A DNA stretch of 64,000 bases from Candidatus Aenigmatarchaeota archaeon (lineage in GTDB: Archaea > Aenigmatarchaeota > Aenigmatarchaeia > CG10238-14 > SpSt-28): assembly GCA_038997165.1 (NCBI GenBank), contig JAWBAK010000001.1:61926-125925 (forward strand), read 5' to 3'. Each line of letters opens with the position of its first letter. Position 1 is the stretch's first letter. Below the pieces are notes generated by a model. The model was not told the origin of the DNA. It did not search any database and was given only the letters and a program-made list of their open reading frames with translations. This document shows positions 2 to 53,432 of this stretch, piece after piece. The translations under genes were made by a program, and so were the position numbers.

Positions 2-3000
2 CTAAATTTCCCATTATTTTTTGCTTGTGGTAATTTTTCAACTAAGTTACAAGTTTTTAATAAAGGTAATTTACCTGCTTATAACTTTAGAATAAATGAA
101 ACAAAAAGTGATATACTTAAAACTCATCCTGGAGATTTAATTTTCTACGGTTTTAATCCTTCTAATCCTTATTTAGAACAATCAAAACTAATTAGCTGGG
201 ATGGAGGAATAAATTTCATAGCTACAGGTAAAGATAATGCAATAAACTTTACTTATTCAATTTTTGTACCATATCAAACTAATGGTACTTTTAGTTTTCA
301 AGCCTTAGCACTTAATAATACCTTTAGCTTTTTCGACGAAGAATATATAATTTCAATTTCTTGTGGAGCTTCTTTAAGCATAGACCAAATTAGAATAAGA
401 AAAGGAGAATATCCAGAACCAACTATATATGTTAACGATATTTTTAACATTTCGGCAAACATTTATAATGATGGTCCAGGAAATGCAAGTAATGTAATAG
501 TTTGGATTAATTATACAAATGTAACTCAAATAAGAGGATTAGAAAATTTAAAAATTTATAATTCTAATGGAGAAGAAAGCAATATTATTTATTTAGGAAA
601 TATTTTACCAAAGGAAACAAAAATTGCCTTTAATGACTATTATTTTACAGTAAATACTTCAGGAGTTTCTCCAGGAATAATAAGATTTTGTATTAATGCA
701 AACGCTACTGAAAATTCTACAATAGTTTCTTCTTGCAGAGATATTACAATAAATGCTCCACCAGCATTAATTGAATTAGAAAATCCCATTGCTATTTCAA
801 AAGAAACAGGCTCATCTTTTGGCTCTTGGAGCTTTAATTTTACTTTTAACGTTTCTGTAAGAGTTTCGAATTCAGAAAATGATGTTCAAATATGTGCATG
901 GTTTAGCAAAACTGGAATGGAACCATTTAAACTAATTGGTTGTGATATTTATCCTGCTCCAGGAAATAATATCGGAAGTTGGAGAAATTATTCTTTTGAA
1001 TATTCTCCAAGCTGTGAAGATATTGGTAATCCTGTATTTATTAAGTTTAATGCAACAAACTTTGCAGGATCTTCTAATTCTACAACATTACCATTTACTA
1101 TCACTAAAAGTAAAATAGTATTCGATGAAATTTTAGGAAATAATACAGAAACTAGAAGAGGGAAAATGCCTACAATTCTTGGTGTTAGAGTAAAAGATAT
1201 AAATGGAACTTATATTTCTAACTTACCATTAAGATTTTACGTAAGTTTAAACGAAATTGTTTTTGATGCAGGTAATACAGTTTATACAAATGAAAGTGGT
1301 TATGCAAACTATAACTTTTTAGCAGTTTGTACTCCAAAATACTTAGTTGGATATCAAAAATGGAAAGCTGAATTAAAAGATAACGAATGTTATTTTGATA
1401 ATTCTACAGAAAATTATTTCGATTTAAGAGTTTTAGTAACTGGAGATATTTTACTATATATAGTTAGGCCAGATGGTAGTACAAACTATACTCAAGAAGA
1501 TACTATTACATTCTTAGGTTATGTAACAGATGATTGTGGAGATCCTTTAACGGCAAGCGTTATATTTTTTGCAAATCATAGCATAGAAAGCTTTGAATGT
1601 TCAGATGTAACTCAAGTAGGTTCTAATGCATATACTTGCGATTGGCATACAGAAATTACTACACCAATGGGTTGGTATAATGTTTCTATGTATGTAGAAA
1701 AAGAGTTTCATTATTCGAATTGGAGTATAAAAGCTAAAGATCCAGGACTATTCTATTTAGAACCTATTTATAAATTAGAAGATCCACAAGCATATCCAAT
1801 AAGAGAAGGATGGGGATATAAAAACTGGAATTTTAGTGTATTTGCATCTAGTGGAGATAGTGAAAATGAGTTTGACGTAAATATATATTTAGGAGATTTG
1901 TGGCCACCAGCAAAGCCTTGTGAAGAGTGTATAAATATTACTCCAAAAACATGCTTTAATTGTTATAAGCAATTGGTTGTATTTTTAAGAAATTTCACTG
2001 CATATGAAATAGGTACTTGGTACTATAGATTTTCCTTAGGACCAACATCAACTACTCAAGTTAAATATGTAATAGTTGAAAAAGATGACACAACAATGGA
2101 ATATGTTAGTGGAAATAATTCTATAGTAATAAGAAATTCTCAACCAGCATTACTTTCTGTTAGAGTTTTTGACTTAGATGCAAATACTTATGAATTAAAT
2201 CCGCCTGCATTAGTTACTTTTAAATTATACGATGAAAAATATCCAAATGGATATAAGGTTATTGGAAGTGTTTATACAAATTCTTCTGGATATGCAAATC
2301 TATTGCTAAACATAACAGAATGTACTGGTTGGCTTGAAGGAATTCAAAAATGGAGTGCAGAAATAGATGATAATGATAACTATTACAAAAAATCTTCCAT
2401 AGGAAACTTTACAATAGAAATTCAATTACCAGGATGCCAGCCGCAAGTATATATTTATTCGATAGAATTACCAAAAGAAGCATTTCAATATAAAAATTTC
2501 ACAATAGTAACATATGTTACTTCTTGGGTAGGAGATGCTGAAGGTGTTTATATAAATATTACTTTACCAGATGGTTGGTATACTGATGAGCAAACTAAAT
2601 ATTTGGGAAAAATATATGCTAACGAATTCAAAAAAATTTATTGGAATGTTTATGCTAGTACATTTGGAGAGGGAAAAGCAATTTTCTATATAAACTCAAG
2701 TAATGCTGGTTATAAAAGATTGGAAAGTAATAATATTGTCGTTTATAAATTTTCTCAATCAACAATAAACTCGATAATTAATATTAATAGTAATGATTTT
2801 GAAATTTTAGAATTTGATTGCGAAACTGGTAACTATAGAATTGCAAACTTAACAATAAAAATTTCAGAGAATTCAAATAATTCAACTCTAAAAATTGAAT
2901 CTTTTAACTCTTCTAACTGGATAAAAATTGAAAATAATTTAGAAGTTATTAGCAATAGCTTCTATTTTATTCCAATATTAGCTAATCAAATTTCAAGCAA

Positions 3001-6000
3001 TTCTGATGGAAAATGTTTAGTAAAAATAACAAATGTTGGAGATAAAAATGTAATTATAGAAAGTGCAACCCTTACTTCTTACTATAATGAAACTTTAAAA
3101 ATAGATGGTATAAAAGTTTTAGTTAATAATTTTGAAGTAGAAAGCATAGATAAAACAGAAAGTTCATTTAATATTTCTGTTAGAATAGGAAATTCCTTAG
3201 ATATAAATAAAGATGGTAATTTAACTTTAAAGATTTTGAAAGATGGAAAGGAAATTTATTCGAATTATAAAGAATTTACAATAAATGCAAATAGCTTTAC
3301 TTTTATTAATTTTACTGATATTCAAACAAGCAATTGGGAAGAAGGAATTTATGAAATAATTGCAATACTCAATTCTTCAAACGAAATTAAATTATTAAAA
3401 AGAGAAATAGTTTTTAGTGAAATAAAAATCGATATAACTTCTCCAAAATATCAATGTAATTCTTCAACAGAAAAAATTTATTTAGAAATTTATCAGCCAT
3501 TAGAAGATTATATTTCTTATAACATTTCTTTACAAATTCCAAATAATTGGGATTATAATCCTAAATACATATACTTAGAGCCAAAAGGTAAAGGATTTTA
3601 TTTTGCCGAATTTAATTTAACAGCATTTTCTGAAATTGAAGAAGATTATCAAATAATAATTGTAATTAATTACACTTACGCAAACAATACAAAAAGTTTA
3701 ATTAAACCTATAAACATAAAAGTTTCTCCAAACATTCCAATTTTAGAAATTATAAGAGAATTACCAAGTTTAGTTTCCACATCAATTGTTTTTAAGCCAA
3801 GAATAGTTATTCATAACAAAGGTTGTGGGATTGCTAATAATGTAACTATTAAAGAATATATTTCAGCCGGTTGGATAGGGGCAAACCCAAGCATTGCAAA
3901 GAACGAATATGCTAATGATCCAGAAGTTTCTGATAAAGATGTTGATTTAATTTATTCTGAAACGGACTTAATAAATAATATACTAACTTGGCAATTAAGC
4001 GATATTAAGCCAAATAAATATGCTGTACTAACATATCAAATAAAAGCTCCTCCAACATTATTTACAGCTGGTTACTTAAAGTATAATATAAGCTGGAATA
4101 ATGAATATTATATTGAAGAAAAAATACCATCAAAAGTTTATACATATAGATATCCAGAAGAATCTCATTTAGAATTTGATTTAATTGCTATTCAAACCTT
4201 AGAATATCCATGGCCAGAAGTAAGAAGCATTCAAGTTAATAGAGAATATAACTTTACTTTAAAAGTTACAAATATTGGAGATATAAATACTAATAATGAT
4301 TGGACTATTAAGCTTTATATTCCAAAAGAATGCGAAGTTATTAATGTAGAAAATGGAATATGGAATGAAAGTGAAAGAAAAATAGTTTGGAGTTTACCAA
4401 ATATTTCAACTTATCAAACATCATATTTTAACTTTACTTTGAAATGTAATGAAGAAAAACAATATGTTTTAATTGCTGAAGGAATAAGAGATACTAGAAG
4501 TAAAGTAAGCTTTGAAAATTCTACATCAATTTATTGCGAATCTTATTCAAAACCTGCATATTGTTATTCTAAATTAGATTATATCTTAGCAAAACCAACA
4601 AATGCTAGATATGAAAAATTATCCAATATAACTATTGAGTTTTTGAATAAATATTCTGGAAATAATTTAACAATTGGAAATTCTTACATAAAAATTTTTG
4701 ACGATTTGCTTAATGAGCATATAATATGGCAAGACTATTCTTTCGAAGAGAAAAATGAAATAAAAACAAAGCAGCTAATAATTTATGAAAATCAAGAAAA
4801 TTTTGTTAGTAATATAAAAACTTTTGAAATTAGCTCATATTCTGATGCAACAGAAAATACTTATACTAACATTTCAATACTTAAAATTTATTATACTTGG
4901 GATTTAGGAAAATTGTTTAATGAAACTCAAAACCTATTTATAAAATCTAAGGTTTATGATTATACACCTCTATTCAGAAACGCAAAGCTCTATATTAATG
5001 GTAACGATTCTATAAAAGTTGGAGGCTGGGGAGAAAAATTTGAATTTAGTGTAGAGGTTAGAGATAGATTTGGAAGAGATGTTATAGTTAGAATGTATCA
5101 TAGAAAAGTAGGTGGTGAGTGGAGTTTAGTAGATGAAAAAGTTTGCTATTCTTGCTTAGAATGGACTCAATTTAATTTTAGCTATGATTACGATTATACA
5201 GATATATCAAATTGGGAATTCAAATTTGAAGGAATAAATTCAGATGGTATTAGCGAATATTATGGATTTGTATATACTGTTGAAAAAGATGATGTTGAAT
5301 TAACACCAATTCAACCACAATGGAACGAAACTGTTTTAAGAGCTTATGGATATAACTTTACGATTTACGCTTTCGATATTGATAATAAAACTATTCCATA
5401 TGTTTTGGAAGATTATAAAGCTTTTGTTGCCTTAGGTCAATATGGAAATAACTTAACTTATAAAATATATACATTATCTCCATCAATTAATGAAAGTGGC
5501 TACATAATTTTAAAAGTTACTAATACAGAGTTTTGTAATCCAGCAAACAACTATTATTTAGGTCAAAACTACTGGTTTGGTGGAATTCAAGGATCTGCAT
5601 ATTATAAAGATGTTAATACAAGAATTCCACCATATAATGCATTACCATATGTATTAATAGGAAGCTTATATAATAACATAATTTATCCAATTAATGTTAA
5701 CTTTAGTTTCGAATTAGATACAATTACTTTAAGAGGAGTTGTTTACGACGATTGTGGAAATATAAGAGCTGATGAAGATATGTATGTATATTTCAATTTA
5801 ACTAATGGAGATTATAATTATCAATGCATAGCTACAAGAGTTGGAAATGAATTCCAATGTACATTTAATCCAAGAAGTTTAAATGCACCCTTAGGTTGGT
5901 ATAACATATCTATGTATTCTTCAAAGCCATTACATACAGATGGTATTTATAGTGTAAATAATGCATTCTTCTTAGCAAGCATACCAAAAATAATTAATAT

Positions 6001-9000
6001 ATCTATTAATCCTTTTGGCGGTCCTTGGGGTTTAAGTCCATTTAATTTTAGTGCATACATTATTGATGAAGATGGAAATTTTGTTAATATAACTCATTAT
6101 TTAAGAAAAGTTCCAGAACAATATTTTGTTGCTTATATTGATAATTGCACAAATTGTAATTATTATTTAACTTCTTTCCTTAGAAATTTTGTTTGTGATT
6201 ATGAAAATATTGAAGTTGGAGAATGGAGATATAAAATTGAAACTAAGGATGAAGCTGGTTTTTCAAATACATCTCAAGAAATTTCATTTACAATAGAAAA
6301 AGAACCAATTAATATATCGCTATTTGAAAGCGTTCCGTTAATTAACAGAAGTAATGTACCAAATTCGAAAGCATACAATTTATCGGTTACTATATTCGAT
6401 ACTATTTTAAATAGAAATGTAACAGAAATACCTTTTGTATATTTAAAATTAGAAGGTCCAGCAACTTTTACATATGAAATGGAAAAGGATGAAACTCAAG
6501 AAAAATATTATTATGAATTTCTTCCAGGTTGTAGTTATCCTGTAGGAGAATATAAATGGTATTCTTATGTTTTAAACGATTATTGCTATCAAAATGCAAG
6601 AAGTGAAAATTATACAATAAACATTTATGGAAGCCTTTCTGTTAACATAATTTCTCCAACAGATTATCAGATTATTCCAGAAGGACAAAGTGTAACTATA
6701 AGATCTAATATTATAGATGATTGTGGTGTTTCAATAACCAATGCTAATGTTTATTATATTTTAAGAAATGAAAGAACTCAAGAAGAATTTAGATGTCCAG
6801 AAAGTGGGTTTGCAAATTATGATGGAACTTCTTATGTTTGCAATTTTAATACTAGTGGCAAACCTGGAGGAAATTATACTATAATAGCTTACGCATCAAG
6901 AAATTATTATTGGGATTCCTTAGCTATAAAAGAAAATGCATTCTTTCTAGTAACTCCAGTAAGAATTATAAATGTTACTATGAATTATGAGCATGATGGT
7001 AGCTGGGGTGAAATTCATAATTTTACAGCTCTAATAGATCATTATAATGATGTTATTGTATGTTTATTAGAAAAACCAATAGATGCACAAGAATACCAAG
7101 TTACTGAATGTAAATATGTAGAAAATCCATCTGGAGGAAAAAAAGTAACATTTAATAGAAGATATACATGTTCAAATTTTGTTAGAAGTCAATTCTGGAA
7201 TTATAAAATTAATGCTACAGAGCCAGGAGTACCTTCTTCTTATAGCGAAAGTCAAGAATATCAACATATGCTACAAAAAAATGATTTATCGCTAATAATT
7301 TATTATAACGATTCTGAAGCAAAAAGATATGGAGATCAAAGGGCAAGATTAATAGTATATGCATATGATTTAGATCAAAAACAAGCTGCATATGTTAGTG
7401 CATATAATTCACCAAATATTAAATTTAATGTATATAATGGAAGTTCTTTTGTTTTTGTTGGTGCAAACTCAACAAATTCTTCTGGATATTCGACTCTATT
7501 TTTCAAACCTGATTGTAGCTTTGATGTAGGAATTAAGGAATGGTATGCTTATACAGAGGCTGATGCATGTTATAAAAATGTAATTTCTGATAGATCAAAT
7601 ATTACAATAGTTGGTCTGTTAAATCCATATTTAGTTTCTCCGATTAATGAAGAATATACAAGATATGCTGAACTATACATAAATCTTTCTGCAATTGTTA
7701 AAGATGAATGTAATTTAATTACATTTGAAAATGCCACTGTTACATTTATTGCAAAAAGTGTTGCTTTTGGAAGCGAATACTTATGTTCAGACGTTACTTA
7801 TTCTAATGGTTATTATAATTGTAGCTTAAATGCAACTTTAATAGAGGAAGGTTGGTATAATGTAAACGTTACAGCATCGAACGTTTTATATTATGATGAT
7901 TACTATTATCTTCAAACAAATTCCTTCAAAATAATTCATAGCTTAGTTCCTCCAGTATTAAGCAATGAGTATGCTTATCCTGAGCAAGATGGAGGTTGGG
8001 GAGAAAGATGGTATTTTAGAGTTAATGTTAGTGATTTGAATGGAGACGATGTAAATATTTATCTTTGGATTTCAAGAGATAGAAGCAATTGGGAACTAGT
8101 AAATCAAACTATTTGCTATAATTGTGGATATGAAAGAACCATAGAACTATCTTATAAAGGATTTACATGCGAAGATTATTTAAATCGGCCAATATACTTC
8201 AAATTCAATGCAACAGATGCTTATAATTCAACAGATAGAAATCCCATAGCTTTATATCTTGATAAAAATGATTTAAGAATTGAGTATTATAGTGGAAATG
8301 AAAGCAAAATAATAAGAAATGTTGGTGGAATATTACAAGCTAGAATTTATGATTTAGATTTTGGAGATTATGCAGATTCTCAAGTTGCTCTATACGTAAC
8401 TACTGATAGAAATAATTATAAGCTTGTAGCAATAAATAATTCATTAAATTCTATAGCTACATTATTCTTTAATCCAACATGCGAATTTGATGTTGGTTTG
8501 CAATATTGGAAAATAGGAAGTTATAATGATGCATGCTATAAAAATGTAAACTCAAGCGATTTCAATTTATATGTAATAGGAAATATCGATGCAAACATAA
8601 CTTATCCAAAAGGAGATAAATTCTTAAGAGGCTCTAATGTAACTTTAAATATTTCAATTTTTGATGAATGTTCAGAAAACATTCCACTAGAAAATACAAA
8701 AATAAATATAACGATGATAAGTAATAGAGATAAAAGCATAAGATATTGTACTGAAATAATTGAATTAGGAAATGGATTATACTCCTGTACATTTAATTCT
8801 TCTAACTTCACTCCAAATTATTATAACGTAACTCTAAATATTTCTAAAGAATTATATACGAATAAAACAAAAACATTTTCTAATGTATTTTGGATTGAAA
8901 CAAATCCAATACTATTTAATTTAAGAGCAATTCCAAATGTTTTAGGCTGGGGAGAAACTTTAACAATAAAAGTTAACTTTACTGATGAAGATTTAGATAC

Positions 9001-12000
9001 TCATACTATAAATGTTTATTTAATTAAAAGTGATTATTCAAGAGTAAGAACTAGAAATATTTTAAATGTTCAAGGAATAAATGTTGAAGCCTCTACACAA
9101 TTTACTTTCACATCTGCAGATATTGGAGATTGGTTTGTAATTGTTAATGTAACCGATGATTTTGGCATTGCTGAAATAAATACTTCAATTACAATTGAAA
9201 AAGACGATACTATTATTGAATATATTAGTGGAAATAATAGTATAGTTCATAGGATTCATAATACAACAACTTTTGAATTAAGAGCTATAGATATAGATAA
9301 TCCATCAAACAATATTTATTATCAGCCAGCTGGTTTTTGGGTTACTTCAGATTATGTTAATTATATTTATATTGGAACTGTATATACTGGAAATAATGGA
9401 TATTTTAATATAACTTTTGATCCTGATTGTAGATTTGAAACAGGAATTCAAAAATGGAAAGGAGGATTATTAGAAAATCCGAATTGGAAGACGTCGAATT
9501 CTTCAGAATATTTTGTTATAATAGTTTCTGATTTAAGTGGAAATATTATTCAGCCAGATGGAAACATTCTTTTAAGAGGCGTAGATTCTTTAAATATTAG
9601 AGCTACTGTTAGCGATGAATGTAAATATGTAAATGGTGCTGATGTTTACTTTGTTGTAGGAAATGAAAACATAAATATTACATGCGATAATGTTATAAAT
9701 GATAATCTAGGAAATTATACTTGTAGTTTATCTTCTAGTACACTTGAAATATTGCCATATGGTTGGAATAATATAACTATGTTTGCAAGGAAAGATTTTT
9801 ATGAAAATGAGTTAGTAATTACTAAACAAAACGCTTTCTACTTAGCAGATAAGCCAAAAATTGAAGATGTTTATGTAACTTCAGCAACTTGGAGATGGGG
9901 GACTGTTTTTGAATTCGTAGGTAAACTATATGATTTGGATCCAGATAATAAAACTGTTTATTTATGGATTAGTAGAGATGGTAGTAATTGGAGATTAATA
10001 AATCAAACAACATATTATGGCCCAACACCACCAGGAGGAGTAGATATTAAATTGAGTTTTATTCCTACTTGCAATGATGTAGGAAATTGGTACTTTAAAT
10101 TTAATGTTACCGATACTAGTGGATATTCGAGCGAAACATTTGGATATCAATTTGAAATACTCAAAAGACCAGCAGTTATAAGCGCTATAAGTGGATTAAA
10201 CAAAATAATTCAAAGAGAGGGTTCTGTTTCCACAACACTAAGAATAAAAGCTATAGATGCAATAGATGGAGCAAATATAAATAATGCAAAAATAAAATTT
10301 ATAACTATTAATAAAACTGGTCACGAAGTAACTTATGAAACTTGGACAAACCAATCTGGTATTGCATCTTACATTTTTGATCCAGATTGTTCTTACGGTG
10401 CTAATAAAACATATTGGAAAGCAATTCTATATAATAATTCATGTTATGAAGATACAGTTTCTCCAAATTTTGATATATACATTTATGGAAAATTGTATAA
10501 TAACCTTGTAGCTCCTTCACAAGGATCAACATTTCCATCTAGAACAACATTTAATATTTCTTATTATATAACTTCAGATTGTAGTGATGAAGGATTAATT
10601 GAGAACGCAAACGCAGAGATTAAAGTGTATGATCCGTTAAATCAAGAAATTATATGTACTCCAATAATTGAGGAAAACGGATATTATAATTGTACTTTTG
10701 ATACTACAGGCAAAAGAGCTGGTGTATATTCGATAACTCTAAACTCAACAAAACAATATTACTTCGGAAGTTATACTAATTATCCAAACTGGTTTAGCAT
10801 ATATAATTCTCCACCAACATATTCAAACATATCTGTCTCTCCATCTATTGCTCCATGGACATCAATACTAAACTTTAGTGTTTATGTTTCAGATGCTGAT
10901 AATGATGTAGTAAGATGTTCTCTAGAAATTAAAAAAGGTTACTCGTATATAGAAGTTGCAACTATGGAAATAAATGGAAATGGTCTTTGTAGTTTTTTGA
11001 TTAGCGATTTTAGCTGTGATGATATAGGAACTAATTACTTTAGATTCTCTTTAAGCGATGGATATAACGATATAGTCTATACAGAAGAGCAATCTTTTGA
11101 ATTAACTAAAAGTCCAGTAGTTCTTAATTTGATTAGTGGAAATGGAACAAGTGTAAGAAGAAATATAGCCTCGACAAACTTAAGAATTAGCGTTTTTGAT
11201 TTAGTTAAAAATTCATTAGTCGGAACTTCAATATTGCCAGAAGCATATGTGAAATTTAATATTACATTTGACAGCTTAAATTATATAAACTTAGATGAAG
11301 TTTCTACAACATCAGGATATGCAGAAGTTATGTTTTCTCCAGATTGTTCTTTCTCAGCCGGAACTCAATATTGGTATGCCTACATTAGTGAAAACGATGT
11401 TTGCTACGAATTCAATCAAACAAATAATTTTGAAGTATATGTAATAGGTAGTTTAAACCCATCTATCATTGAACCTACCAATTTATTTAAAGTATATAAA
11501 GGGAATAACGTAAGCATTAGAGCGAATATTCAAGATGATTGCAATGAAAATGTTAGCGTAGATTTTATACAAATTAATCCAATAAGCAGAATTACAGGTC
11601 AAATGTTTAATTGTATTGTTTCAGAAGAAAATATAGGAATCTATAACTGTAGTTTTGAAACTGTAGATAAACCAGCTGGAGCATACGATATTAGAGTAAA
11701 TGTTTCTAAACAATATCATGTCTCAGCAATATATACAGAAAGTAATGCGTTTTTCATAGAAACCTATCCTTCATTAACAAACCCATCTGTTACACCAATA
11801 GTTGAGGGTTGGGGTAAAACAAGAACATTTAGTATTACAGCAAGTGATGAAGATAGAGATGCTTTATATGTCTGCTTATATTATAGACCGAAAGGAAGTG
11901 AAGATTGGAGCTTAGCGTCTTGTAGAACGAAACCTTCTGGCATTGCTTCACAAACATTAACATTTTCTAGAACATTTAGCTGCGATAATTTATTAGGACA

Positions 12001-23683: not shown

Positions 23684-23685
23684 TT

Positions 23686-24918
23686 ATGAAAGAAGAATTA
23701 TTAAAACAAAAAAAAGAGATTGAAGATTTATTAAATGAAATTGAAAATAGTTATAGAAAAGGTGAAATAAGTGAAGAATCCTACAAAGAAATTATTGAAG
23801 AAAATAAGAAAAAATTGGAAGAAATAGAAAAGAAATTAAAAGAAATAGGAGAAAAAAGAGAGGAGAAAAAAGAGAAAAAAAGTAGAATAGAAGAAATTAT
23901 TGAAAGAGTCTTTAAAGTAGAGAAAGAAGTTTCTTCAAAAGAAATTAAAAAGGTTCAAGAAGATTTATCAAAAGTTAGTGTAGAATTAGAAAAAACAAAA
24001 GCATTGATCGATACACTTAAAGAAATGAAACAAACAACAGATGAAAAAATTATAAGAATTACAGAAAATATTGGTGAGTTGAGATCTATGTTAGTTGCGA
24101 GAGAATCTAAGGTTAGAGAGTTAGAAGCTAATGTTGAAAGAATGAAAGAAGTTATAAAGGAAATTGAGCCTGAAAAGTATATGAAAGAATTGAATAAAAT
24201 AAGAAAAGAAATTGAGTTATTTAGAGCTAAGGTTGAAAAAGTTGAATATTTAAGTGGAGAAGCTGCGAAAGCTGTTAAAGAATTGCAAATGCAATTAAAG
24301 ATAATAGGAAATGTTGAAAATTTAGCAAAATTAAACAAAGAATTGCAAGATAAATTAAAAGAAATTCAACTGATCTCACAAAAAATCGAAAATATGTCGG
24401 CTAAAATCGAATCTATATTTGTTGAGCTTAACAAAAAAATGAGAGATATAGAAATTTTAAAGGATAAAGTCGACGTACTATTTCAAAATTACAATGAGCT
24501 TAGTAGAAATGTTAACGATGCAATTAATAAATTAGAGAATTTTGTTACAAAAAACGAATTTAATAGCTTTAGAGATTATGTAGGTAATTTAGAAAAGCAA
24601 ATAGTTGAAGCTGAAAAGAAAAAAGAGAAAAAAATAGAAGAGGAAGCAACAAAAAGAATTAAAGAAATTGAGGAAGAAATTGAGGGAATTAACTTATTAA
24701 TTCAAAGTTTAGAAGAAATGTTAAATGAAGGAAAAATTTCTAAAGAAGAATATGAAAGCTTAAAAAATACGCATATTCAAAAAATTAGAAAACTAGAAGA
24801 GGAAAAGGAAAAAATATTGAATGATAGAAAAATGAGCAAAATTGAAATGAAATTAAGAGAACTATATGAAAGAGGAATAATAAGTGAGGAGCTTTATAAA
24901 AAACTTACTAAAAAATGA
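23686..24918 (+). CDS. 410-aa K/E-rich coiled-coil protein with three SHOCT-like motifs
   Basis: ATG lies 2 nt after the giant gene's stop. Heptad-rich throughout, no TM. GxISxExY motifs: RKGEISEESYKEIIEENKKKL at the N-terminus, NEGKISKEEYESLKNTHIQKI in the middle, ERGIISEELYKKLTKK at the C-terminus. Its TGA stop overlaps the next start (ATGA at 24915). Confidence 0.8.
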   Translation: MKEELLKQKKEIEDLLNEIENSYRKGEISEESYKEIIEENKKKLEEIEKKLKEIGEKREEKKEKKSRIEEIIERVFKVEKEVSSKEIKKVQEDLSKVSVELEKTKALIDTLKEMKQTTDEKIIRITENIGELRSMLVARESKVRELEANVERMKEVIKEIEPEKYMKELNKIRKEIELFRAKVEKVEYLSGEAAKAVKELQMQLKIIGNVENLAKLNKELQDKLKEIQLISQKIENMSAKIESIFVELNKKMRDIEILKDKVDVLFQNYNELSRNVNDAINKLENFVTKNEFNSFRDYVGNLEKQIVEAEKKKEKKIEEEATKRIKEIEEEIEGINLLIQSLEEMLNEGKISKEEYESLKNTHIQKIRKLEEEKEKILNDRKMSKIEMKLRELYERGIISEELYKKLTKK

Positions 24919-27900
24919 AAAAAATATTAATAATAGCTATATTTTTGTTTTTTGGTTTATTAATATCCTTTTTTATTTCAAATTTCACAGGATTTTTTGT
25001 TTATAGATATGTAGAAGATAAATGGTGGAATTCTAGTTATAATTTTAGAATTAAAATAGAAATTGATAGTAGTGATTATGTTAGAACTAATTGGCCAATA
25101 GAGATTTTTATAAATTTTACCAAAAAGTTAGAAGAATTAAATATAAGCGGAAACTTAGATTTAAATTCTTTAAGATTAGTTGAATATGATAACAACGGCA
25201 ATCCAATAGGAATTATTCCATTTCAATTCGATATAGAAGAAAATTTTAACAAATCAAATAATGCAGTTGGAGAGCTAGTTTTCATTTTAAACGGAACAAA
25301 CAATGCAAAAAGAAAATTTTATTTATATTTTGACATAGAAGAAAATGGCTTAAAAGAAAGAGTAGAATTTCCAACAAATCTTTCTTATTCCATAGAAAAC
25401 AATTTAATTAAAATTAACACAACCGGATTTATTTTTACATTAGCAAATACATCTAATAAATTTGGTTTTGTAAATATTGAAAGAAAAGAAGAGTTTGGCG
25501 GCTTATATATATTTTATCCATCCGATATCCCTTTTGAATATTCAACAACATATAATCAATCCCATCAGTTTTTCTATATTCCATATGATTTAGAAATTAT
25601 TGAAGGTCCAATAAGATTGGGGATAAAAGTAAAAATGGTTGAAATAGATAATTTTGGAAATATAACTGGAATAAACTATACGAAGACATATTACTTCTAT
25701 AATTATGCTGGCCCCGGAAGTTTAGAAGATGTAGCTGCTAATTTAGTTAAGATTAAGCAAAAGTTCTTAGGTAATGCTATAAGGTTTTCAAACTATTCTT
25801 TTGGATTCGAAGTATCTAATTTATATGGAGATCCTCAAGTAAATATTGGATTTGATGTAAATCTAAACAATCCATACTCATATGCTTATGCATTTAGAGG
25901 TTCTTTTAGCGCCATGATAATTAACCTAAATTATTCTAATATAGAATTTTTTGCAAATAGCGATAGCGAAAGTTTTATAGGTTTTTACTTTAATGAAAAT
26001 GAAATAAATAATGCTGAGCATATTGGCTTAGCTTTTTTTGGTATATTATCTACACCAGAAGAACAAGAATATCCATATAAAATCTTAAATGGATTTTCAA
26101 ATCCAATAAGTATCAATATTTATAGTACTGAAAATAGAGAAGTTATATTTGGAGTTCATACTGAATTTGATATATATAATAGAGGGGAAAATGTAAAAAT
26201 TGTTGCATATAACATTTCAGATCCATACAATCTTGTATCTTATGTAATTGCAAGAATTGATAGAGGAACAGAAAATGAAAACGATGATATAATTTTAGAA
26301 TTATTCGATGATGGGCAACATAACGATAATTTACCAAATGATAAAATCTTTGGAAACAACTTTACTATTTTACCTATTGATGAAATTGGAATTTGGAAAA
26401 TAAAAATTTATGTTTTCGATTCTAATAATGTATTGCTAGCAACTAATGAAACTTATTTTAATGTTACAAATATTTTGCGCGTAGAAACCAATATAATTAA
26501 TAAACATGGAGATGTTAATAGAATTTTACAAGCTTTAGTTAATGTAAAGAATTTTAGAGAAGATGAAAACATAACAAATGCAGAAATAAAATGTTTTGAT
26601 AATGGAATTGAAAAAGAAATAGATGTATTAAATTTTAATAACGGAACTTATTTAATTTCTATTAATTCCTCTAGTAATCCAGGATATAATATTTTAAACT
26701 GTTCGGCATCATATTTAAATAATAGCGGATATGATTTCGATATATATGATTCCACAGATGTTATAACTTATCTTTCTATAGAAGCTATTCCAAATTCGTA
26801 TTTTGCTGAAAACATTACATTTTATTCTAGTGAAAGCTTCAAAGTAATTATAAATGTTACTAATTTACACATAGGTTACGCTTATGATGTTAACATAACA
26901 TTTAATACTTCAAATTCCATTGAAGTAATCCCAGAAATAGAATATTGTGATAATATTTACATCGAAGAATATTGTACAAAAGAATTTATAGTAATAATAA
27001 AAAATGCAACTTTACCTAACGTATATAATATAACTGCTATAGTAAATTGGAGAAATCATGACGAAAGCTATAGCTCTAACACAACAAATATAACTATTGA
27101 AGTAAAGAGTAATAAAATTTTAGAAATTTATCCAGATGAAATTTTTAGTGTGAATCCTCCTGGAAAGGAAACATACTTAGGCAAAATAATTCTTAATTCT
27201 ACTGGAAATGATTTTGTTTATAACATTTCTTTTTCTTCTAATATTACTGATTTAGAGTTTATATTTAATCCAAATATAAGTTATATAGAGCCTGGAAAAA
27301 TAGTTGAAATAAATGTTAATGTTAGTATTCCATTAGGATATCCTGCTGGAACTTATTATGGAATTATAAATGTTAGTAGTGAAATTGGATATAAAGAAAT
27401 TAATTTAACTTTAAAGGTTAGCGGAACAAATGCAACAATAGAAATTTATCCAAATTATTATTTTGCCGAAAATATTACAACTTTAACATCGGAAAGCTTT
27501 GAAGTTATAATAAATGTTACTAATATAGGAAATGTAGATGCCTTCTTTTCAAACATTTCTATAGAATTGCCAAATGACAATTTTTCTTCTAACATAACTT
27601 TTTTTGATTGTGGAAATCTATCTGCAAAAGAAAGTTGTATTATATTTGTAAAAATAAATATAAAGGAATTAACATTACCAAACATATATGAAATAATTTA
27701 TTTCTTCAATTGGACTGATATAGGTTTAGAAAGTAGAAGCATAAGTAATAAAACTATTGTTGAAGTAAAGAGTAATAAATTTTTAGAAATTTATCCAGAT
27801 GAATTTATAGTAAGTGCTAATCATAACGAAACTAAAAATATAGGCAAAATAATTCTTAATTCTACTGGAAATGATTTTGTTTATAACATTTCTTTTTCTT

Positions 27901-30641
27901 CTAATATTACTGATTTAGAGTTTATATTTAATCCAAATATAAGTTATATAGAGCCTGGAAAAATAGTTGAAATAAATGTTAATGTTAGTATTCCATTAGG
28001 ATATCCTGCTGGAACTTATTATGGAATTATAAATGTTAGTAGTGAAATTGGATATAAGGAAATATTGCTTAACATAACTATTTTGAGAGATGGGTTTTGG
28101 ATTATAGATAAGGATTATTGTGAAGCTACGTTTTATCCACCTATTGGAATAGTTTGTGAAATAAATATAGAAAATTTGGGAAATATACCATTAAACTTTA
28201 ATATTACACCAAAAGAAGTAAATTATACCTGGATTAATGTAACTGATTTTACTATTTATCCACAAACAAACTATAGTTTTGAAATTTATTATGATGTTAG
28301 AAATGCTCCATTAGAGTTTATTTATGCTACATATAATATAAGCGCTATAGAAGTGGATGCAATACCTAAGTTTAGATTAATAAACATAAGCTTAAGACCA
28401 TTTATTGGTGCAATAGCAAACCTAACTATTTTTCCAAATATAACTTCGCAATCCTCTAACATAACAATTAATGCTTCTGTATTCGATAGAAGTGGAATTG
28501 GTATGGATTATGTAATTGCAATAATACAAAAACCAGATGGTTTAACAGAGAATATAACATTAACTAAAATCTCGGAAATCAATAGAACTTCTGTTTGGAT
28601 AGGAAATTTTAGTAATACTACACTAAGCGGAAAATATTTTGTAATTTTGGAGATGAAGGATAATGCAAACATAACTACTTATGCCTATGGTAATTTTTCT
28701 GTATATAAAATTCTGTTTCCAAACATATACATTAATAAAGATGAATATGAAAGAGGGGAAAGCATTTCTATATATTTTAATTTAGTTGATTATGCCAATA
28801 TTGGTATTGATAATGCAAGCGTAAGATTAAGAGTATTTAATCCAAGCGGATACAAAATATTCGATGAAATATATGTAACTGAAAATGGGAAAATTCCTAT
28901 AGCAGTTATTAATATACCGACAGATGCAGAATTAGGTAGCTATTCTATTATTGCTAACATAAGCTATTACGACGAAATCAAAGAAGATTTTTCTTATTCG
29001 AGTGATTTAAAAAGTTTCTTAGTTGTTGAAAAACCAAAAATTTCTCTTTTTGCAGATTTAGAAACGAGTGTAGTATGGTATCCAGAAAATGTAATAAAAT
29101 TTGCAATGACTTTCTATGATAATAGAGGAAATCTTTTTGATCCAGATTATGCAGAGCTAAACGTTTTTGATCCCGCAGAAAACTTATATTTTTCAAAAAA
29201 TATAAGCGAATTTAAAAAAGAAAGCTTAGGTTTCTATACTTTAAAGTATGCAATGCATCCCTATACTGCTACAGGTGCATACTTAGCTATTTTGAATTTT
29301 AGTAAAATGAATATTTCTTCAATAAAAACAAAAATGTTTAGGGTAAGTGCTGGTGGACCTTTTGACTTAAAAGTTAATCTTCTAAAAAAAGAGGTAGAAA
29401 GAGGAGATTTGCTACCTTTTGAAATTACAATAATTAACATGGGTGAAGTTAGTATGGATGTTTTTATTGAATATTATGTAAGTGATAAAGATGGTGAAGT
29501 TTATTATTATTCTAGTGAATGGATTTATTCGCCAGCAGCATCAAATAAAACAATTTTAAGAAATGTTTATATATTTTCTAATCAGCCGCTAGGCTTACAT
29601 TATTTAAATGTTATTATGACTTATGATACTATAAAACCTCCACTAAAAGTTAATGAAAGTTTTATTGTAATTGAGAAAATTGAAAAACCTGCACCAATAC
29701 ATAAACCGGTTCAACCAACGATACCAATTGTTGAAATTGCTCCAATAACTCCAAATATAACTAAAAATTATAGTATCGAATTTTTATATATACCTAAAGA
29801 GGTAAGAGTTGCTGCTGGTGAAGAAAAAAGTTTTTTAGTTGTAATAAAAAATGATGGAAATCAACCATTAACTAATGTTGAAGTCAAATTATTAGGAATT
29901 GATACTAGCTGGTATAAAATAAAAAATGAATCATTAAAGTTTTTTGATGTAAATCAGACTATTATTTTTGAAATAATTTTACTAATTCCAAAAAATATAA
30001 AGCAACAAGAAATTAACGTTGTGTTTTATTTTAAATCTTTTGAATTTTTTACATCTAAAGAATTTATATTAAAAATATTTCCATCTTTAGAAGAAATGTT
30101 ACTAGATGAATTAAAAGAATTAAAATCAAAATTAATAGATTTAAAAATTAAAACTTATGAAGCAAAAATACAAAATAAAAATGTTAGTGAAGTAGAAAAA
30201 ATAATAACTAAATGCGAAGAATTAATTAAATTAATAGAAGATTTAATCAAATCTAAAGAATATACAGAAGCTAGTATAAAACTATATGAATTAAGAAGTT
30301 TAATAGATAAAGGTTATTATTTGCTAGAAATTGCTACATTTATAATAAAATTTGAATGGGAAAAATTTTTGTTCATCATTACTTTAATAACTATTATTTC
30401 TGGAATAATCTCAATAATTATACTCTATGTATTAAATACTAGAAAACTACAAAAAATAACTTATAAAGCTGTCGAAAGTACAATTCAAGAACTTAAAAAG
30501 ATAAAATTCGAAAATAAAAAAGAGGAAATAGAAAAAACTAAAAAAATTTTAGATATTCTAGAAAAAGAATATAAAGAAGGAATTATTTCAAAAGAAACTT
30601 ACGAAGAATTAAAAAAGAAATATGAAGAAAAATTGAAATAA
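24915..30641 (+). CDS. 1908-aa surface protein: N-terminal signal/anchor, CARDB-like beta-sandwich repeats, Pro-rich linker, C-terminal TM helix and a cytoplasmic coiled-coil tail ending in a SHOCT-like motif
   Basis: Starts MKKILIIAIFLFFGLLISFFISNF. Many NxS/T sequons. Motifs include VTNLHIGYAYDVNITF and VTNIGNVDAFFSNISI. Linker KPAPIHKPVQPTIPIVEIAPITP (about 29686-29755). TM FIITLITIISGIISIIILYVL (about 30366-30440). The tail ends ...KEYKEGIISKETYEELKKKYEEKLK. ATGA-coupled to the upstream gene. Confidence 0.85.
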   Translation: MKKILIIAIFLFFGLLISFFISNFTGFFVYRYVEDKWWNSSYNFRIKIEIDSSDYVRTNWPIEIFINFTKKLEELNISGNLDLNSLRLVEYDNNGNPIGIIPFQFDIEENFNKSNNAVGELVFILNGTNNAKRKFYLYFDIEENGLKERVEFPTNLSYSIENNLIKINTTGFIFTLANTSNKFGFVNIERKEEFGGLYIFYPSDIPFEYSTTYNQSHQFFYIPYDLEIIEGPIRLGIKVKMVEIDNFGNITGINYTKTYYFYNYAGPGSLEDVAANLVKIKQKFLGNAIRFSNYSFGFEVSNLYGDPQVNIGFDVNLNNPYSYAYAFRGSFSAMIINLNYSNIEFFANSDSESFIGFYFNENEINNAEHIGLAFFGILSTPEEQEYPYKILNGFSNPISINIYSTENREVIFGVHTEFDIYNRGENVKIVAYNISDPYNLVSYVIARIDRGTENENDDIILELFDDGQHNDNLPNDKIFGNNFTILPIDEIGIWKIKIYVFDSNNVLLATNETYFNVTNILRVETNIINKHGDVNRILQALVNVKNFREDENITNAEIKCFDNGIEKEIDVLNFNNGTYLISINSSSNPGYNILNCSASYLNNSGYDFDIYDSTDVITYLSIEAIPNSYFAENITFYSSESFKVIINVTNLHIGYAYDVNITFNTSNSIEVIPEIEYCDNIYIEEYCTKEFIVIIKNATLPNVYNITAIVNWRNHDESYSSNTTNITIEVKSNKILEIYPDEIFSVNPPGKETYLGKIILNSTGNDFVYNISFSSNITDLEFIFNPNISYIEPGKIVEINVNVSIPLGYPAGTYYGIINVSSEIGYKEINLTLKVSGTNATIEIYPNYYFAENITTLTSESFEVIINVTNIGNVDAFFSNISIELPNDNFSSNITFFDCGNLSAKESCIIFVKINIKELTLPNIYEIIYFFNWTDIGLESRSISNKTIVEVKSNKFLEIYPDEFIVSANHNETKNIGKIILNSTGNDFVYNISFSSNITDLEFIFNPNISYIEPGKIVEINVNVSIPLGYPAGTYYGIINVSSEIGYKEILLNITILRDGFWIIDKDYCEATFYPPIGIVCEINIENLGNIPLNFNITPKEVNYTWINVTDFTIYPQTNYSFEIYYDVRNAPLEFIYATYNISAIEVDAIPKFRLINISLRPFIGAIANLTIFPNITSQSSNITINASVFDRSGIGMDYVIAIIQKPDGLTENITLTKISEINRTSVWIGNFSNTTLSGKYFVILEMKDNANITTYAYGNFSVYKILFPNIYINKDEYERGESISIYFNLVDYANIGIDNASVRLRVFNPSGYKIFDEIYVTENGKIPIAVINIPTDAELGSYSIIANISYYDEIKEDFSYSSDLKSFLVVEKPKISLFADLETSVVWYPENVIKFAMTFYDNRGNLFDPDYAELNVFDPAENLYFSKNISEFKKESLGFYTLKYAMHPYTATGAYLAILNFSKMNISSIKTKMFRVSAGGPFDLKVNLLKKEVERGDLLPFEITIINMGEVSMDVFIEYYVSDKDGEVYYYSSEWIYSPAASNKTILRNVYIFSNQPLGLHYLNVIMTYDTIKPPLKVNESFIVIEKIEKPAPIHKPVQPTIPIVEIAPITPNITKNYSIEFLYIPKEVRVAAGEEKSFLVVIKNDGNQPLTNVEVKLLGIDTSWYKIKNESLKFFDVNQTIIFEIILLIPKNIKQQEINVVFYFKSFEFFTSKEFILKIFPSLEEMLLDELKELKSKLIDLKIKTYEAKIQNKNVSEVEKIITKCEELIKLIEDLIKSKEYTEASIKLYELRSLIDKGYYLLEIATFIIKFEWEKFLFIITLITIISGIISIIILYVLNTRKLQKITYKAVESTIQELKKIKFENKKEEIEKTKKILDILEKEYKEGIISKETYEELKKKYEEKLK
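27099..28063 (+). repeat. Internal tandem duplication (period 663 nt) in the 1908-aa gene: a two-domain unit repeated twice, with the second sub-domain nucleotide-identical between copies
   Basis: Block 27180-27395 equals 27843-28058 (216 nt identical, encoding GKIILNSTGNDFVYNISFSSNITDLEFIFNPNISYIEPGKIVEINVNVSIPLGYPAGTYYGIINVSSEIGYK). The 5' part of each unit (KSNK(I/F)LEIYPDE...) is near-identical for ~42 nt and then diverges. Confidence 0.9.
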
Positions 30642-30674
30642 ACCATATTTGTTATTTATAGTGATAAATTATTT

Positions 30675-31442
30675 ATGGCAGAAATTATAGCCTTTTTATC
30701 TGGAAAAGGTGGTGTTGGTAAGACTACTATTGCAATTAACATAGCAAACGTTTTGTCGACATATTTTAGAAGAAAAGTATTAATTGTCGATACAAATTTT
30801 ACAACCTCTCATTTGGGTTTAAGTTTAGGAATTTTTTATCCAGAAGGAAATTTAAATAAAGTATTAAGAGGAGAAATGAATGTTGAAGATGCTATACATA
30901 ATTATTCTTTAGGTCTTGACTTATTGCCGCTATCTTTATCTATTAGAGATTTAGAAGGGATTGATATATTAAAATTTCCAAGAGTTTTAGAAAGTGTTAA
31001 TTACCGATATGATTATATAATTTTAGATGCAGCTCCAGGACTCGGAAGAGAAGCTATTTTATCTATTAAAAATGCTAATAAAATAGTTTATATTGCTCTG
31101 CCTATAATGCAAAGTGTTGTAGATATAGTTAGAACTCAAGAAGTTGTAAGAGAGTTTGAAAAAAAAGAATTAGGAATTATATTAAACATGGTTAGAAACA
31201 AACCTTATGAAATGAGAGATAACGATATTGAAGGATTAACAAATTTAAAAATAATTGGAAAAATTCCATATGATGAAAGATTTTTAATTTCAAATGCACA
31301 TAAATTGCCCTATACAACCCTTTATCAAAATAACAAAACTTATGAAGAATTTCTAAAGATTTGTAGTATTTTAACAAATCAAAAAATAGAAATTAAAAAA
31401 AGTTTGTTTGGAAGAATATTAGAATTTTTATTTAAAAAATAA
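30675..31442 (+). CDS. MinD/ParA-family (SIMIBI) ATPase, 255 aa
   Basis: Deviant Walker A FLSGKGGVGKTTIAINIA. Blocks VDTNFTTSHLGLSL and IILDAAPG (Walker B-like). Size typical of MinD/ParA/Mrp. Confidence 0.85.
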   Translation: MAEIIAFLSGKGGVGKTTIAINIANVLSTYFRRKVLIVDTNFTTSHLGLSLGIFYPEGNLNKVLRGEMNVEDAIHNYSLGLDLLPLSLSIRDLEGIDILKFPRVLESVNYRYDYIILDAAPGLGREAILSIKNANKIVYIALPIMQSVVDIVRTQEVVREFEKKELGIILNMVRNKPYEMRDNDIEGLTNLKIIGKIPYDERFLISNAHKLPYTTLYQNNKTYEEFLKICSILTNQKIEIKKSLFGRILEFLFKK

Positions 31443-31454
31443 TATATATTAATT

Positions 31455-31682
31455 ATGGTTTACAATATAAGTTTAACATTAATATTAGCTATATTACTAA
31501 TTAGTATCTCTTTTTTATTTTTATTAATATATAAAAAAAGAAAGAAGAGTATAGATGAATTAATACAAGAAATTGAAAATAATCTATTAGATATTAAAAA
31601 AAATCTAGAAAATATTCGTTTAATTTTAAAAAAAGAGCAAAAAGAAATAAAGAGAAAACATGCCAGAAAGAGGAGCATTTGA
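31455..31682 (+). CDS. 75-aa single-TM protein with a basic/coiled-coil tail
   Basis: MVYNISLTLILAILLISISFLFLLIYKKRKK... The hydrophobic N-terminus is followed by KKRKK. It overlaps the next ORF start by 23 nt. Short, so the call is uncertain. Confidence 0.45.
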   Translation: MVYNISLTLILAILLISISFLFLLIYKKRKKSIDELIQEIENNLLDIKKNLENIRLILKKEQKEIKRKHARKRSI

Positions 31683-33561: not shown

Positions 33562-34214
33562 GTGAAATTCTCGAAATATTGAAAAAGAAAAAAGAATATG
33601 AAAAAATTAGAGAAGAAATTAAGAATGTATCAAACAAATTAAGTCAATTAGAAAATAATTTTATTTATTTAAATAGAGAATTTAATAATCTAAAAGAGGA
33701 ATTTAATAAACTTAAAGAATTAGATCCTATACTTTCAAAATTATTAGAAACTATAAAAAAAATTGAGGAATTTGAAACAAATATAAAAGAAATTAAAGAT
33801 TTAAAAGAGAAATTGAAAATAGATTTAGAGAAAAAAACAAAAAAGAAAATAATTAAACTAATAGAAAAATTAAACTTAAAAGAAAATATTAAAAAAGATA
33901 TAGAAAAAGAAATGAATAAAATTTTAAATGAAAAAATTAATGAAATTGAGAAAAAATATTGGAAGGATTTATCTGAAATAAAGGAATTGAGAAAAAACAT
34001 TGAAAATTTAAAAATTGAAAAGAATAGATTGAATGAAAAAATTTTTGAGTTTGGAAAAATTGAAAATTATTTAAATGAAAAGATTAGAAGAATCGAAAAT
34101 GAAATTGAAAGAATTAAAGGAAAGGTAGAGGAATATGTTAATGAAGTTATAAAAGAAGTAGAGGAATATGTTAATAATTCAATTAAAAAAATTGTTAAGA
34201 ATAGGGGGGTTTAA
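33558..34214 (+). CDS. 218-aa coiled-coil protein
   Basis: K/E/I-rich heptads. Ends ...KNRGV with a G6 tract in the last codons (34204-34209). Confidence 0.7.
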   Translation: MSEILEILKKKKEYEKIREEIKNVSNKLSQLENNFIYLNREFNNLKEEFNKLKELDPILSKLLETIKKIEEFETNIKEIKDLKEKLKIDLEKKTKKKIIKLIEKLNLKENIKKDIEKEMNKILNEKINEIEKKYWKDLSEIKELRKNIENLKIEKNRLNEKIFEFGKIENYLNEKIRRIENEIERIKGKVEEYVNEVIKEVEEYVNNSIKKIVKNRGV

Positions 34215-34340
34215 TATTTTAAAGTTAAAAATATTAATATTAAACTAAGTAATATTACTATGGTACAATTATTTTACTCTTTTTTCATTTTAAAAAACAT
34301 GAAAGAAAATGATACAGCTACTCTCGATGGGAAGGGGGGG
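34204..34340. repeat. Two G homopolymer tracts (G6 at 34204-34209, G7 at 34334-34340) each immediately followed by TAA, flanking a 130-nt AT-rich spacer that holds a 14-codon uORF (34300-34344, MKENDTATLDGKGG)
   Basis: Seen directly: ...aagaataggggggtttaa... and ...gatgggaagggggggtaaaaATG. The G7 sits 5 nt upstream of the ATG at 34346, in Shine-Dalgarno position. G runs of 6 or more are otherwise almost absent from this window. Confidence 0.6.
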
Positions 34341-34345
34341 TAAAA

Positions 34346-34957: not shown

Positions 34958-34962
34958 TTATT

Positions 34963-41514: not shown

Positions 41515-41543
41515 AAAAAAATAAAATAAAGGAAAAAATATTA

Positions 41544-53429: not shown

Positions 53430-53432
53430 GTT

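Follow-up and report, generated by a model that had tools for sequence, protein, structure and literature searches.

Our analysis suggests, with a probability that we put at about 60%, that four plus-strand genes in a 64,000-nucleotide stretch of a Candidatus Aenigmatarchaeota archaeon (contig JAWBAK010000001.1; hereafter the window, in whose coordinates all positions are given) are the local copy of a cell-envelope module conserved among DPANN archaea, carried here by an Aenigmatarchaeota-like, low-GC genome (about 25% GC, computed over the 64-kb window), which is built around a SPEARE-type giant protein and operates by the mechanism proposed below. The genes encode the giant with its C-terminal ATPase domain, a 410-amino-acid (aa) protein named cc410, a 1,908-aa surface protein named S1908, and a 255-aa MinD/ParA-type ATPase, and they are packed stop to start. 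The TAA stop codon of the giant open reading frame (ORF) at 23681-23683 is followed by only TT at 23684-23685 before the ATG of the cc410 gene at 23686, a gap of 2 nt; the ATG of the S1908 gene (24915-24917) overlaps the TGA of the cc410 gene (24916-24918) in an ATGA arrangement; and the TAA of the S1908 gene (30639-30641) is separated by a 33-nt spacer from the ATG of the MinD gene at 30675. These coordinates bear out on the sequence those of the original prediction, which had proposed the four genes as a co-expressed system on the strength of their packing. Its further step, from translational coupling to stoichiometric assembly, does not follow, since a start/stop overlap does not entail it.

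The centrepiece of the locus belongs to a known type. Giant SPEARE proteins, composed of a long ectodomain, a C-terminal transmembrane (TM) helix and a conserved cytoplasmic domain, were described in Nanohaloarchaeota, where the cytoplasmic domain was read as a restriction enzyme and serine-protease and toxin-like ectodomains were ascribed to the family, and related cytoplasmic domains were already noted in Aenigmarchaeota, Micrarchaeota, Woesearchaeota and Altiarchaeales (Hamm 2019, PMC6642349). The ectodomain assignments were subsequently disputed, and the domain was re-read as an ATPase that resembles VirB4/TraG and ends in a coiled coil, for which a type IV-like secretion role was proposed, with a second VirB4-like ATPase gene reported downstream in nanohaloarchaea (Reva 2023, PMC10266531). 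In a direct BLASTP comparison, the C-terminus of the window giant is 39% identical over 379 aa (E 2e-103) to that of the SPEARE protein of Ca. Nha. antarcticus (Hamm 2019, SI Fig. S18), in whose sequence the motifs DPTAQW, YDEVHR and GAREFRKWG are also visible, and the window giant is therefore a new member of the SPEARE family. It has in common with that family a giant chain that is adhesin-like and for the most part extracellular, a single TM helix close to the C-terminus, a cytoplasmic P-loop ATPase and a helical tip, whereas the published loci have the second VirB4-like ATPase downstream and the window and its related loci have instead a cc410-family protein, a protein of about 1,950 aa with a cytoplasmic tail resembling the SHOCT domain, and MinD. 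The statement that no such system had been described is thus not tenable for the fusion of giant and ATPase, because a SPEARE protein stands at its centre, and it appears to hold for the partner set: the searchable literature on DPANN HerA, DUF87, VirB4 and giant proteins yielded only the SPEARE papers and no description of these partners or of the motif they share. The conserved neighbourhood of the SPEARE-type ATPase appears to be undescribed so far.

The evidence that carries the proposal is the conservation of this neighbourhood. Hundreds of relatives of the ATPase domain were found, mostly labelled Aenigmatarchaeota. An exhaustive search of 1.84 billion cluster representatives returned 367 matches with E <= 1e-30; many of these are giants, as long as 7,665 aa, in which the domain sits at the C-terminus or close to it. 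A scan of species-representative genomes (one genome per species) gave at least 578 matches, from which 80 loci were kept. These include loci of Micrarchaeota, Nanoarchaeia, Woesearchaeota, Altiarchaeota and Haiyanarchaeum, with ATPase identities of 51-89%, the closest relative (89%) being L005, from an Aenigmatarchaeota hot-spring metagenome-assembled genome. Linkage was counted over 82 non-redundant loci, with at least 1.8 kb of downstream sequence required for cc410 (75 loci) and at least 9 kb for S1908 and MinD (49 loci); in 71 of the 82, the ORF with the HerA domain extends past the end of the 10-kb flank, and at least 3,000 aa of it can be seen in 44. Downstream of the ATPase and on the same strand, all 75 loci have a cc410 homologue, within 100 nt in 59 of them. 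Reciprocally, among metagenome loci chosen by the cc410-family motif and having enough upstream sequence, a HerA domain is encoded directly upstream of the cc410 homologue in 48 of 50. An S1908 homologue of about 1,950 aa occurs in 34 of the 49 loci, MinD in 23, both in 19 and neither in 11.

At least four gene orders, besides strand flips, are found among the related loci, whose other neighbours vary from one to the next. Order A, that of the window, runs giant, cc410 homologue, S1908-type protein, optionally the uncharacterised protein p203 considered below, and MinD; in order B, the giant and the cc410 homologue are followed by MinD, then by opposite-strand genes, and only then by the S1908-type protein; order C has two genes of about 100 aa and a 154-aa HExxH membrane protein between the cc410 homologue and the S1908-type protein; and in order D a stand-alone 728-aa HerA protein is followed by the cc410 homologue, a 325-aa protein and MinD, with a separate giant gene upstream. 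The central claim of the original prediction, a conserved gene neighbourhood, thus extends across DPANN lineages and withstands rearrangements of gene order and strand. Unlinked homologues in related genomes, which that prediction had named as what would count against it, were looked for, and the outcome does not count against it, cc410 being linked in all 75 loci that could be scored. As a set of four equal members the prediction is only partly sustained: the linkage of cc410 is universal, and that of the other two partners is unequal. The counts support a universal core, as judged from gene content, of giant/HerA plus cc410, with the S1908-type protein and MinD as frequent accessories. One transcript for the four genes would be at most a feature of the window lineage, since several relatives have these genes divided between the two strands or interrupted by others. 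Promoter and terminator counts between 21 and 39 kb equalled the shuffled expectation, in a scan whose bacterial models are unsuited to an archaeon.

These patterns bear directly on whether the genes form a functional unit at all, rather than reflecting synteny inherited among close relatives or a mobile or defence element, such as a HerA-based anti-phage system or a conjugative element with ParA. HerA does occur in defence systems, PADLOC HerA models give weak, partial matches here, and ParA-type genes are common on plasmids. Against this, the linkage survives ATPase identities of 51-89%, several phylum labels, order shuffles and strand flips while other neighbours change; the window ORFs that were scanned include no Sir2, DUF4297, NurA, integrase or relaxase, the first three being absent from the conserved neighbours as well; and base composition is uniform across the locus. 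We therefore regard the absence of a functional unit as very improbable. A plasmid or phage origin was considered separately and rejected, the only matches of that kind being DUF87 proteins of about 27% identity on haloarchaeal megaplasmids, with no phage matches; a defence system was likewise rejected, the PADLOC HerA matches being weak and partial and effector genes being absent.

The giant ORF (2..23683, plus strand, as are all the features of the module) has no stop codon from nt 2 to 23680, which leaves at least 7,893 codons visible, and it runs off the left edge of the window, so that its 5' end lies outside; an open frame of 23.7 kb at a GC content of about 27% cannot be due to chance. 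A search aimed at the full length of the giant found the exact cc410 protein in only one contig, a 7.2-kb Logan contig (SRR27215044). The ectodomain (2..21688) is a sequon-rich array of divergent beta-sandwich modules, in which Pfam gives only weak Ig-like matches (Big_7, Big_1, DUF11 and NEW3) over the visible giant. Neither protease nor toxin nor laminin-G domains were detected by Pfam in the visible 7,893 aa, the N-terminal part lying outside the window. The giant contains no internal repeats at a BLASTP E < 1e-4; a repeat-free ectodomain of 7,200 aa (2-21688) is unusual, giant adhesins being normally built of recently duplicated modules. Towards the membrane, a Cys-rich motif (CGNGICE..CPLDCP) precedes a Gly/Pro/Ala-rich linker (21689..21826), which marks the border between the giant extension and a minimal module of about 730 aa. 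The stand-alone 728-aa homologues start at the equivalent point and consist of a signal peptide, a Cys/Pro-rich linker, two Ig-like domains, a TM helix and HerA. The membrane-proximal Ig-like pair that they have in common with the giant (21827..22486) is defined by the alignment consensus and by weak NEW3 and WxLIP_PGBD matches, and it is followed by a single TM helix (22487..22564) and then by the sequence KLRKLKEKRY, in keeping with a positive inside. This assignment rests on hydropathy, on helices of the AlphaFold (AF2) model at query residues 59-69 and 71-101, and on the change in sequon density at this point: 283 N-X-S/T sequons are found in the 7,499 aa N-terminal of the TM-like helix (37.7 per 1000 aa) and 0 in the 369 aa after it. 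By these sequence features, the giant is predicted to consist of a heavily N-glycosylated, non-repetitive ectodomain and, connected to it through one TM helix, a P-loop ATPase of the HerA type in the cytoplasm whose catalytic motifs are intact.

The ATPase core (22610..23476) is assigned to the HerA/FtsK superfamily by Pfam, by a PDB profile search and by the AF2 model with Foldseek, the DUF87/HerA match of Pfam at the C-terminus of the giant being above the cut-off (1.4e-10). It contains the Walker A motif GGTGSGKT (22742-22765), the Walker B DE (23129-23134) and a REFRKWG motif (23198-23218). The corresponding residues, G148-T155 for Walker A, D277 and E278 for Walker B, and those of the REFRKWG/Arg motif, are invariant across 21 aligned sequences; ATP turnover is probably under selection, because the catalytic motifs are strictly conserved. 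When a profile of 21 homologues was compared with the PDB, it retrieved HerA-type chains only, the best being Sulfolobus HerA (4d2i, 7e-11). The AF2 model, with a mean predicted local distance difference test score (pLDDT) of 87.9, comprises a long TM helix, a RecA-type core about 20 residues on, and three C-terminal helices (residues 393-418, 424-438 and 442-459), which together form a tip at 23477..23680 that aligns with the SPEARE C-terminus. Foldseek ranked HerA 4d2i first (2e-12), then defence-type HerAs, and then TcpA, FtsK and VirB4. Compared with the HerA repair and defence helicases (4d2i, Sir2-HerA), which are the closest in solved fold and sequence and share Walker A/B, REFRKWG and the C-terminal helical extension, the window ATPase has no HAS-barrel, for which only about 20 residues are available between TM helix and core in the model, has none of the NurA, Sir2 or DUF4297 partners, and is membrane-anchored and fused to an extracellular giant. 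The best NCBIfam matches, to CedD, HerA, TraD, CedB and TraB, are all partial and far under their cut-offs (CedD 43.1 bits against 600, at 2.3e-11; CedB 20.6 against 700; the HerA models 24-31 against 800-970). The Ced system of Sulfolobales (CedB, CedD; PMC11868833) resembles the present case as a membrane-anchored HerA-clade archaeal ATPase acting at cell-cell contacts, CedD being the best of these partial matches, but in the window the TM helix, although N-terminal to the ATPase, comes after a giant ectodomain, and no VirB4-like N-terminal domain, CedA-type channel or pilin genes were found. As far as sequence comparison and the structural model indicate, the domain belongs to the HerA/FtsK superfamily, looks active, and is closest to HerA while falling in none of the named families, a placement that differs from its earlier annotations as a restriction enzyme and as VirB4/TraG-like.

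This placement weakens the published proposal for the nanohaloarchaeal giants, in which the fibre binds the host and a VirB4/TraG-like ATPase drives effectors or DNA from symbiont to host in the manner of type IV secretion (Reva 2023, PMC10266531). The fold search does return the coupling protein TcpA and VirB4, and weak matches to T4SS-DNA_transf, TraD and TraB are present; ParA/MinD-type ATPases, moreover, accompany some secretion machines. HerA nevertheless outranks VirB4 and VirD4 in both sequence and fold, PF02534 (T4SS-DNA_transf) reaches 16.8 bits against a cut-off of 20.1, and Pfam finds no VirB4 N-terminal domain (PF03135) in the ATPase of the giant. No VirB6-, VirB3- or VirB8-like protein, pilin or relaxase was found among the conserved neighbours or in the Pfam scans of the window, and the downstream gene here encodes a coiled-coil protein instead of the second VirB4-like ATPase of nanohaloarchaea. 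Since HerA ranks first and the other type IV secretion components are absent, we deem such an exporter distinctly unlikely.

The immediate partner of the ATPase, cc410 (23686..24918), is assigned as a cytoplasmic all-helical protein from its linkage, alignment and AF2 model. It has no TM helix and 1 sequon. Its family is defined by a specific core of about 200 aa (23962-24585) with invariant E120, G130, E131, R133 and P162, flanked by variable charged linkers and by G-x-I-S-x-x-x-Y-type motifs, three of which form SHOCT-like turns in the window protein (about 23761-23787, 24730-24765 and 24871-24906); the model is all-helical, with breaks at the G-x-I-S turns. SHOCT is significant in 2 of 15 aligned sequences, namely window cc410 and 14 homologues, with a best E value of 1.3e-11. 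Member by member, the Pfam scan gave only SHOCT and GvpG, in a few members, and the family profile against the PDB gave only chance coiled-coil matches (E >= 0.014). We conclude that the cc410 family is a dedicated all-helical cytoplasmic protein, encoded beside the SPEARE-type ATPase essentially always. Genes for a histidine kinase and a response regulator come immediately after that of the cc410 homologue in some related loci.

S1908 (24915..30641), a sequon-bearing surface protein identified by Pfam, topology and linkage, starts with a signal or anchor segment (24924-24980; residues 4-22 by hydropathy). Pfam gives weak NEW3 and MG2 Ig-like matches, the NEW3 domain lying at about 29811-30044; it is followed by a coiled-coil stalk recognized in the sequence (about 30078-30344), a clear TM helix (30369-30425; residues 1819-1837) and a cytoplasmic tail (30426-30638) with a SHOCT-like motif at 30579-30617. 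The sequons again change at the membrane, with 82 in the ectodomain and 0 in the 68-aa tail. All 33 complete S1908-type homologues end in a TM helix and a tail of 71-91 aa closing with a SHOCT-like motif (for example, EYKEGIISKETYEELKKK), detected by regular expression in 26 and by eye, as near-variants, in 7, compared with 7 of 362 control ORFs. The motif is the same as that of which cc410 bears three copies. A second surface protein of this build is encoded in most loci of Aenigmatarchaeota type. It also occurs in the pairs of about 100-aa proteins of order C loci and in the 325-aa proteins of the minimal, order D loci, which match the C-terminal module of S1908 (NEW3, stalk, TM helix and tail) with a best E value of 6e-14. 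Among 16 selected loci, of Micrarchaeota type and others, most of them without an S1908 homologue, a search for SHOCT-tailed TM proteins met proteins with the motif only in two (L075 and L076), neither of them of Micrarchaeota type. Within the S1908 gene, a perfect 223-nt direct repeat (27178-27400 and 27841-28063, plus strand, 663 nt apart) was observed; it possibly reflects a very recent internal duplication of a module of about 221 aa, or a point of assembly collapse or expansion. The component types named in the original prediction, a giant fused to HerA, a SHOCT coiled-coil protein, a surface protein with a tail and a MinD, accordingly agree with Pfam and topology, and a single envelope-spanning module is supported because the linkage is conserved, fused and split forms exist and a cytoplasmic motif is shared.

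SlaB and tetrabrachion are S-layer stalk proteins with Ig domains, a coiled-coil stalk and a TM segment. S1908 and its 325-aa mini-versions have the same layout of Ig-like domain or domains, stalk and C-terminal TM helix, but no sequence match, and the S1908-type proteins have in addition a conserved SHOCT-like cytoplasmic tail and a genetic link to an ATPase. A surface-coat module without transport is thus conceivable, in which S1908 would be S-layer-stalk-like and the giant an adhesin, while the ATPase ring, cc410 and MinD would make up a cytoplasmic plaque which clusters, tensions or positions them. Besides the layout of S1908 and the mini-versions, a similar one has been described for DPANN surface proteins, and no channel partner was found to be conserved; since each ATPase subunit has a single TM helix, a wide channel is less likely, and a purely mechanical or organizing role therefore stays a serious rival. 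On the other hand, every characterized member of the HerA/FtsK family is a polymer translocase, the strictly conserved catalytic motifs point to ATP turnover under selection, and Pfam scans of the locus proteins gave no S-layer family match. On balance, we consider a coat module without transport doubtful.

The fourth gene (30675..31442) encodes a MinD/ParA-type ATPase with AAA_31, CbiA and ParA matches that are all above the Pfam cut-offs, a deviant Walker A motif SGKGGVGKT (30699-30725) and a C-terminal helix, KKSLFGRILEFLFKK (31395-31439), judged by eye to be amphipathic. In the archaeal MinD model TIGR01969 (minD_arch) it scores 151.8 bits (1.8e-44), below the cut-off of 201.75. Among the linked MinDs, KGGVGKT is present in nearly all, and most have a hydrophobic/basic C-terminal tail that, again by eye, looks amphipathic; from its sequence, the C-terminal helix is predicted to bind the membrane. 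Positioning ATPases of the MinD/ParA type include TadZ/CpaE for Tad pili, FlhG for flagella and MinD4 for the haloarchaeal archaellum and chemosensory arrays. The window protein resembles them in being a small ATPase with a deviant Walker A motif and a C-terminus that looks amphipathic and would bind the membrane, and in having its gene next to those of a predicted large envelope complex; it differs from them in that MinD of the window type occurs in only about half of the related loci and falls under the archaeal MinD subfamily cut-off.

The mechanism that we propose for the module starts from the ATPase domains, which would form a hexameric ring under the membrane, as in all solved relatives, and would thereby gather six giant chains into a long fibre on the surface, able to reach a host cell and bind it. 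cc410 would act as a cytoplasmic scaffold around the ring and, through SHOCT-SHOCT contacts, would tie in the tail of the second surface protein to give one trans-envelope complex, which ATP-bound MinD on the membrane would place or stabilize at one site. At host contact, the ring would spend ATP in moving a polymer across or at the membrane. As to the substrate, our best guess would be nucleic acid that comes from the host, given that DNA is what the nearest characterized relatives (HerA, CedB/CedD, TraB and FtsK) all move. A bolder version, which we hold only tentatively and think rather doubtful, would make the module a hitherto unrecognized, DPANN-wide trans-envelope nanomachine in which a HerA hexamer holds a six-chain fibre or conduit of hundreds of nanometres, set where the cell touches its host, that pulls in host nucleic acid or other polymers.

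Several observations weigh against the envelope module with this mechanism. Six single TM helices would form a pore too narrow for DNA, so that a channel would need other TM partners, none of which was identified, and no nuclease, pilin or channel protein is conserved among the neighbour families. The TM helix of the giant is moderately hydrophobic, being the second most hydrophobic 19-mer of the protein (Kyte-Doolittle 1.48). MinD, like the S1908-type protein, is absent from many loci, and the Micrarchaeota-type loci examined have no SHOCT-tailed protein within 10 kb. As for cc410, the Pfam SHOCT match (PF09851) of the window protein reaches 21.5 bits, under the 27-bit cut-off, the predicted template modelling score (pTM) of its AF2 model is low (0.31), and Foldseek finds nothing with E < 0.6.

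Downstream of MinD, the right-hand limit of 31442 given in the original prediction is probably too early, since the following 217 nt hold a 75-aa ORF and tightly packed same-strand genes (633, 218, 203 and 1,045 aa) run on to 38100, the strand switching only at 38101; the cluster probably reaches about 38,100. The 75-aa ORF (31455..31682), which shares 23 nt with the beginning of the gene after it, encodes a TM segment with a coiled-coil tail, and a similar TM protein of about 90 aa follows MinD in L034, L036, L039, L040 and L044; it is probably part of the module. The 203-aa product p203 (34346..34957), noted for its linkage to MinD, had no match in Pfam, NCBIfam, PADLOC or the PDB. It is probably a further component or regulator of the module, because its homologues adjoin MinD in 12 related loci. 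The genes around it (31660..38100, plus strand), encoding proteins of 633, 218 and 1,045 aa with generic coiled-coil matches only, are a possible lineage-specific extension of the cluster, the 633-aa gene being kept only in the closest relative, L005, among the related loci compared. Their products are rich in Asn, Lys, Glu and Ile, they form the lowest-GC stretch of the window (17-20%), and the 1,045-aa gene contains a 300-nt internal repeat (35812-36111 and 37378-37677, 84% identical).

Recurrent neighbours were recorded in other related loci (L001, L002, L008, L012, L013, L014, L017-L021, L024 and L033), where a 154-aa multi-TM protein with a HELGH motif, a possible membrane metalloprotease, is encoded beside the S1908-type gene; a TM-anchored small GTPase-like protein and the pairs of SHOCT-like proteins of about 100 aa also recur. 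Elsewhere in the window, a second MinD-centred operon (38687-42461, minus strand) encodes a 305-aa protein with an N-terminal TM segment, the 241-aa MinD2, and a secreted protein of 706 aa that bears sequons and is anchored by a TM segment at its C-terminus. The genes of the last two overlap by 19 nt. Both MinD paralogues of the window are thus encoded beside membrane or surface protein genes. In a further surface-protein cluster (45801-56624, plus strand), a protein of 2,542 aa carries beta-propeller/PQQ/FG-GAP domains and 84 sequons, and after it come three small or medium-sized membrane or secreted proteins of 173, 689 and 207 aa without family match. On the 3' side of these clusters lies a large Lhr-type helicase (56646-59315, plus strand; DEAD, Helicase_C, WH_Lhr and DEAD_assoc) which looks like a housekeeping gene. 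A scan for tRNA genes in the window found none.

The means by which DPANN archaea adhere to their hosts and draw material from them are a major open question, for which SPEARE proteins, so far treated as stand-alone giants, are among the proposed candidates. Through the present analysis, what was one curious protein becomes a defined module of several proteins that is open to testing and occurs in hundreds of species, by the addition to the ATPase of a near-obligate cytoplasmic partner, a second surface protein that shares the putative docking motif of this partner, and an often linked MinD-type ATPase. It makes the DPANN host-interaction apparatus experimentally tractable, with the contacts between cc410 and the ATPase, the SHOCT-SHOCT contacts and MinD as targets. 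If true, a polymer-importing nanomachine of this kind would provide the molecular basis that has long been sought for DPANN "feeding."

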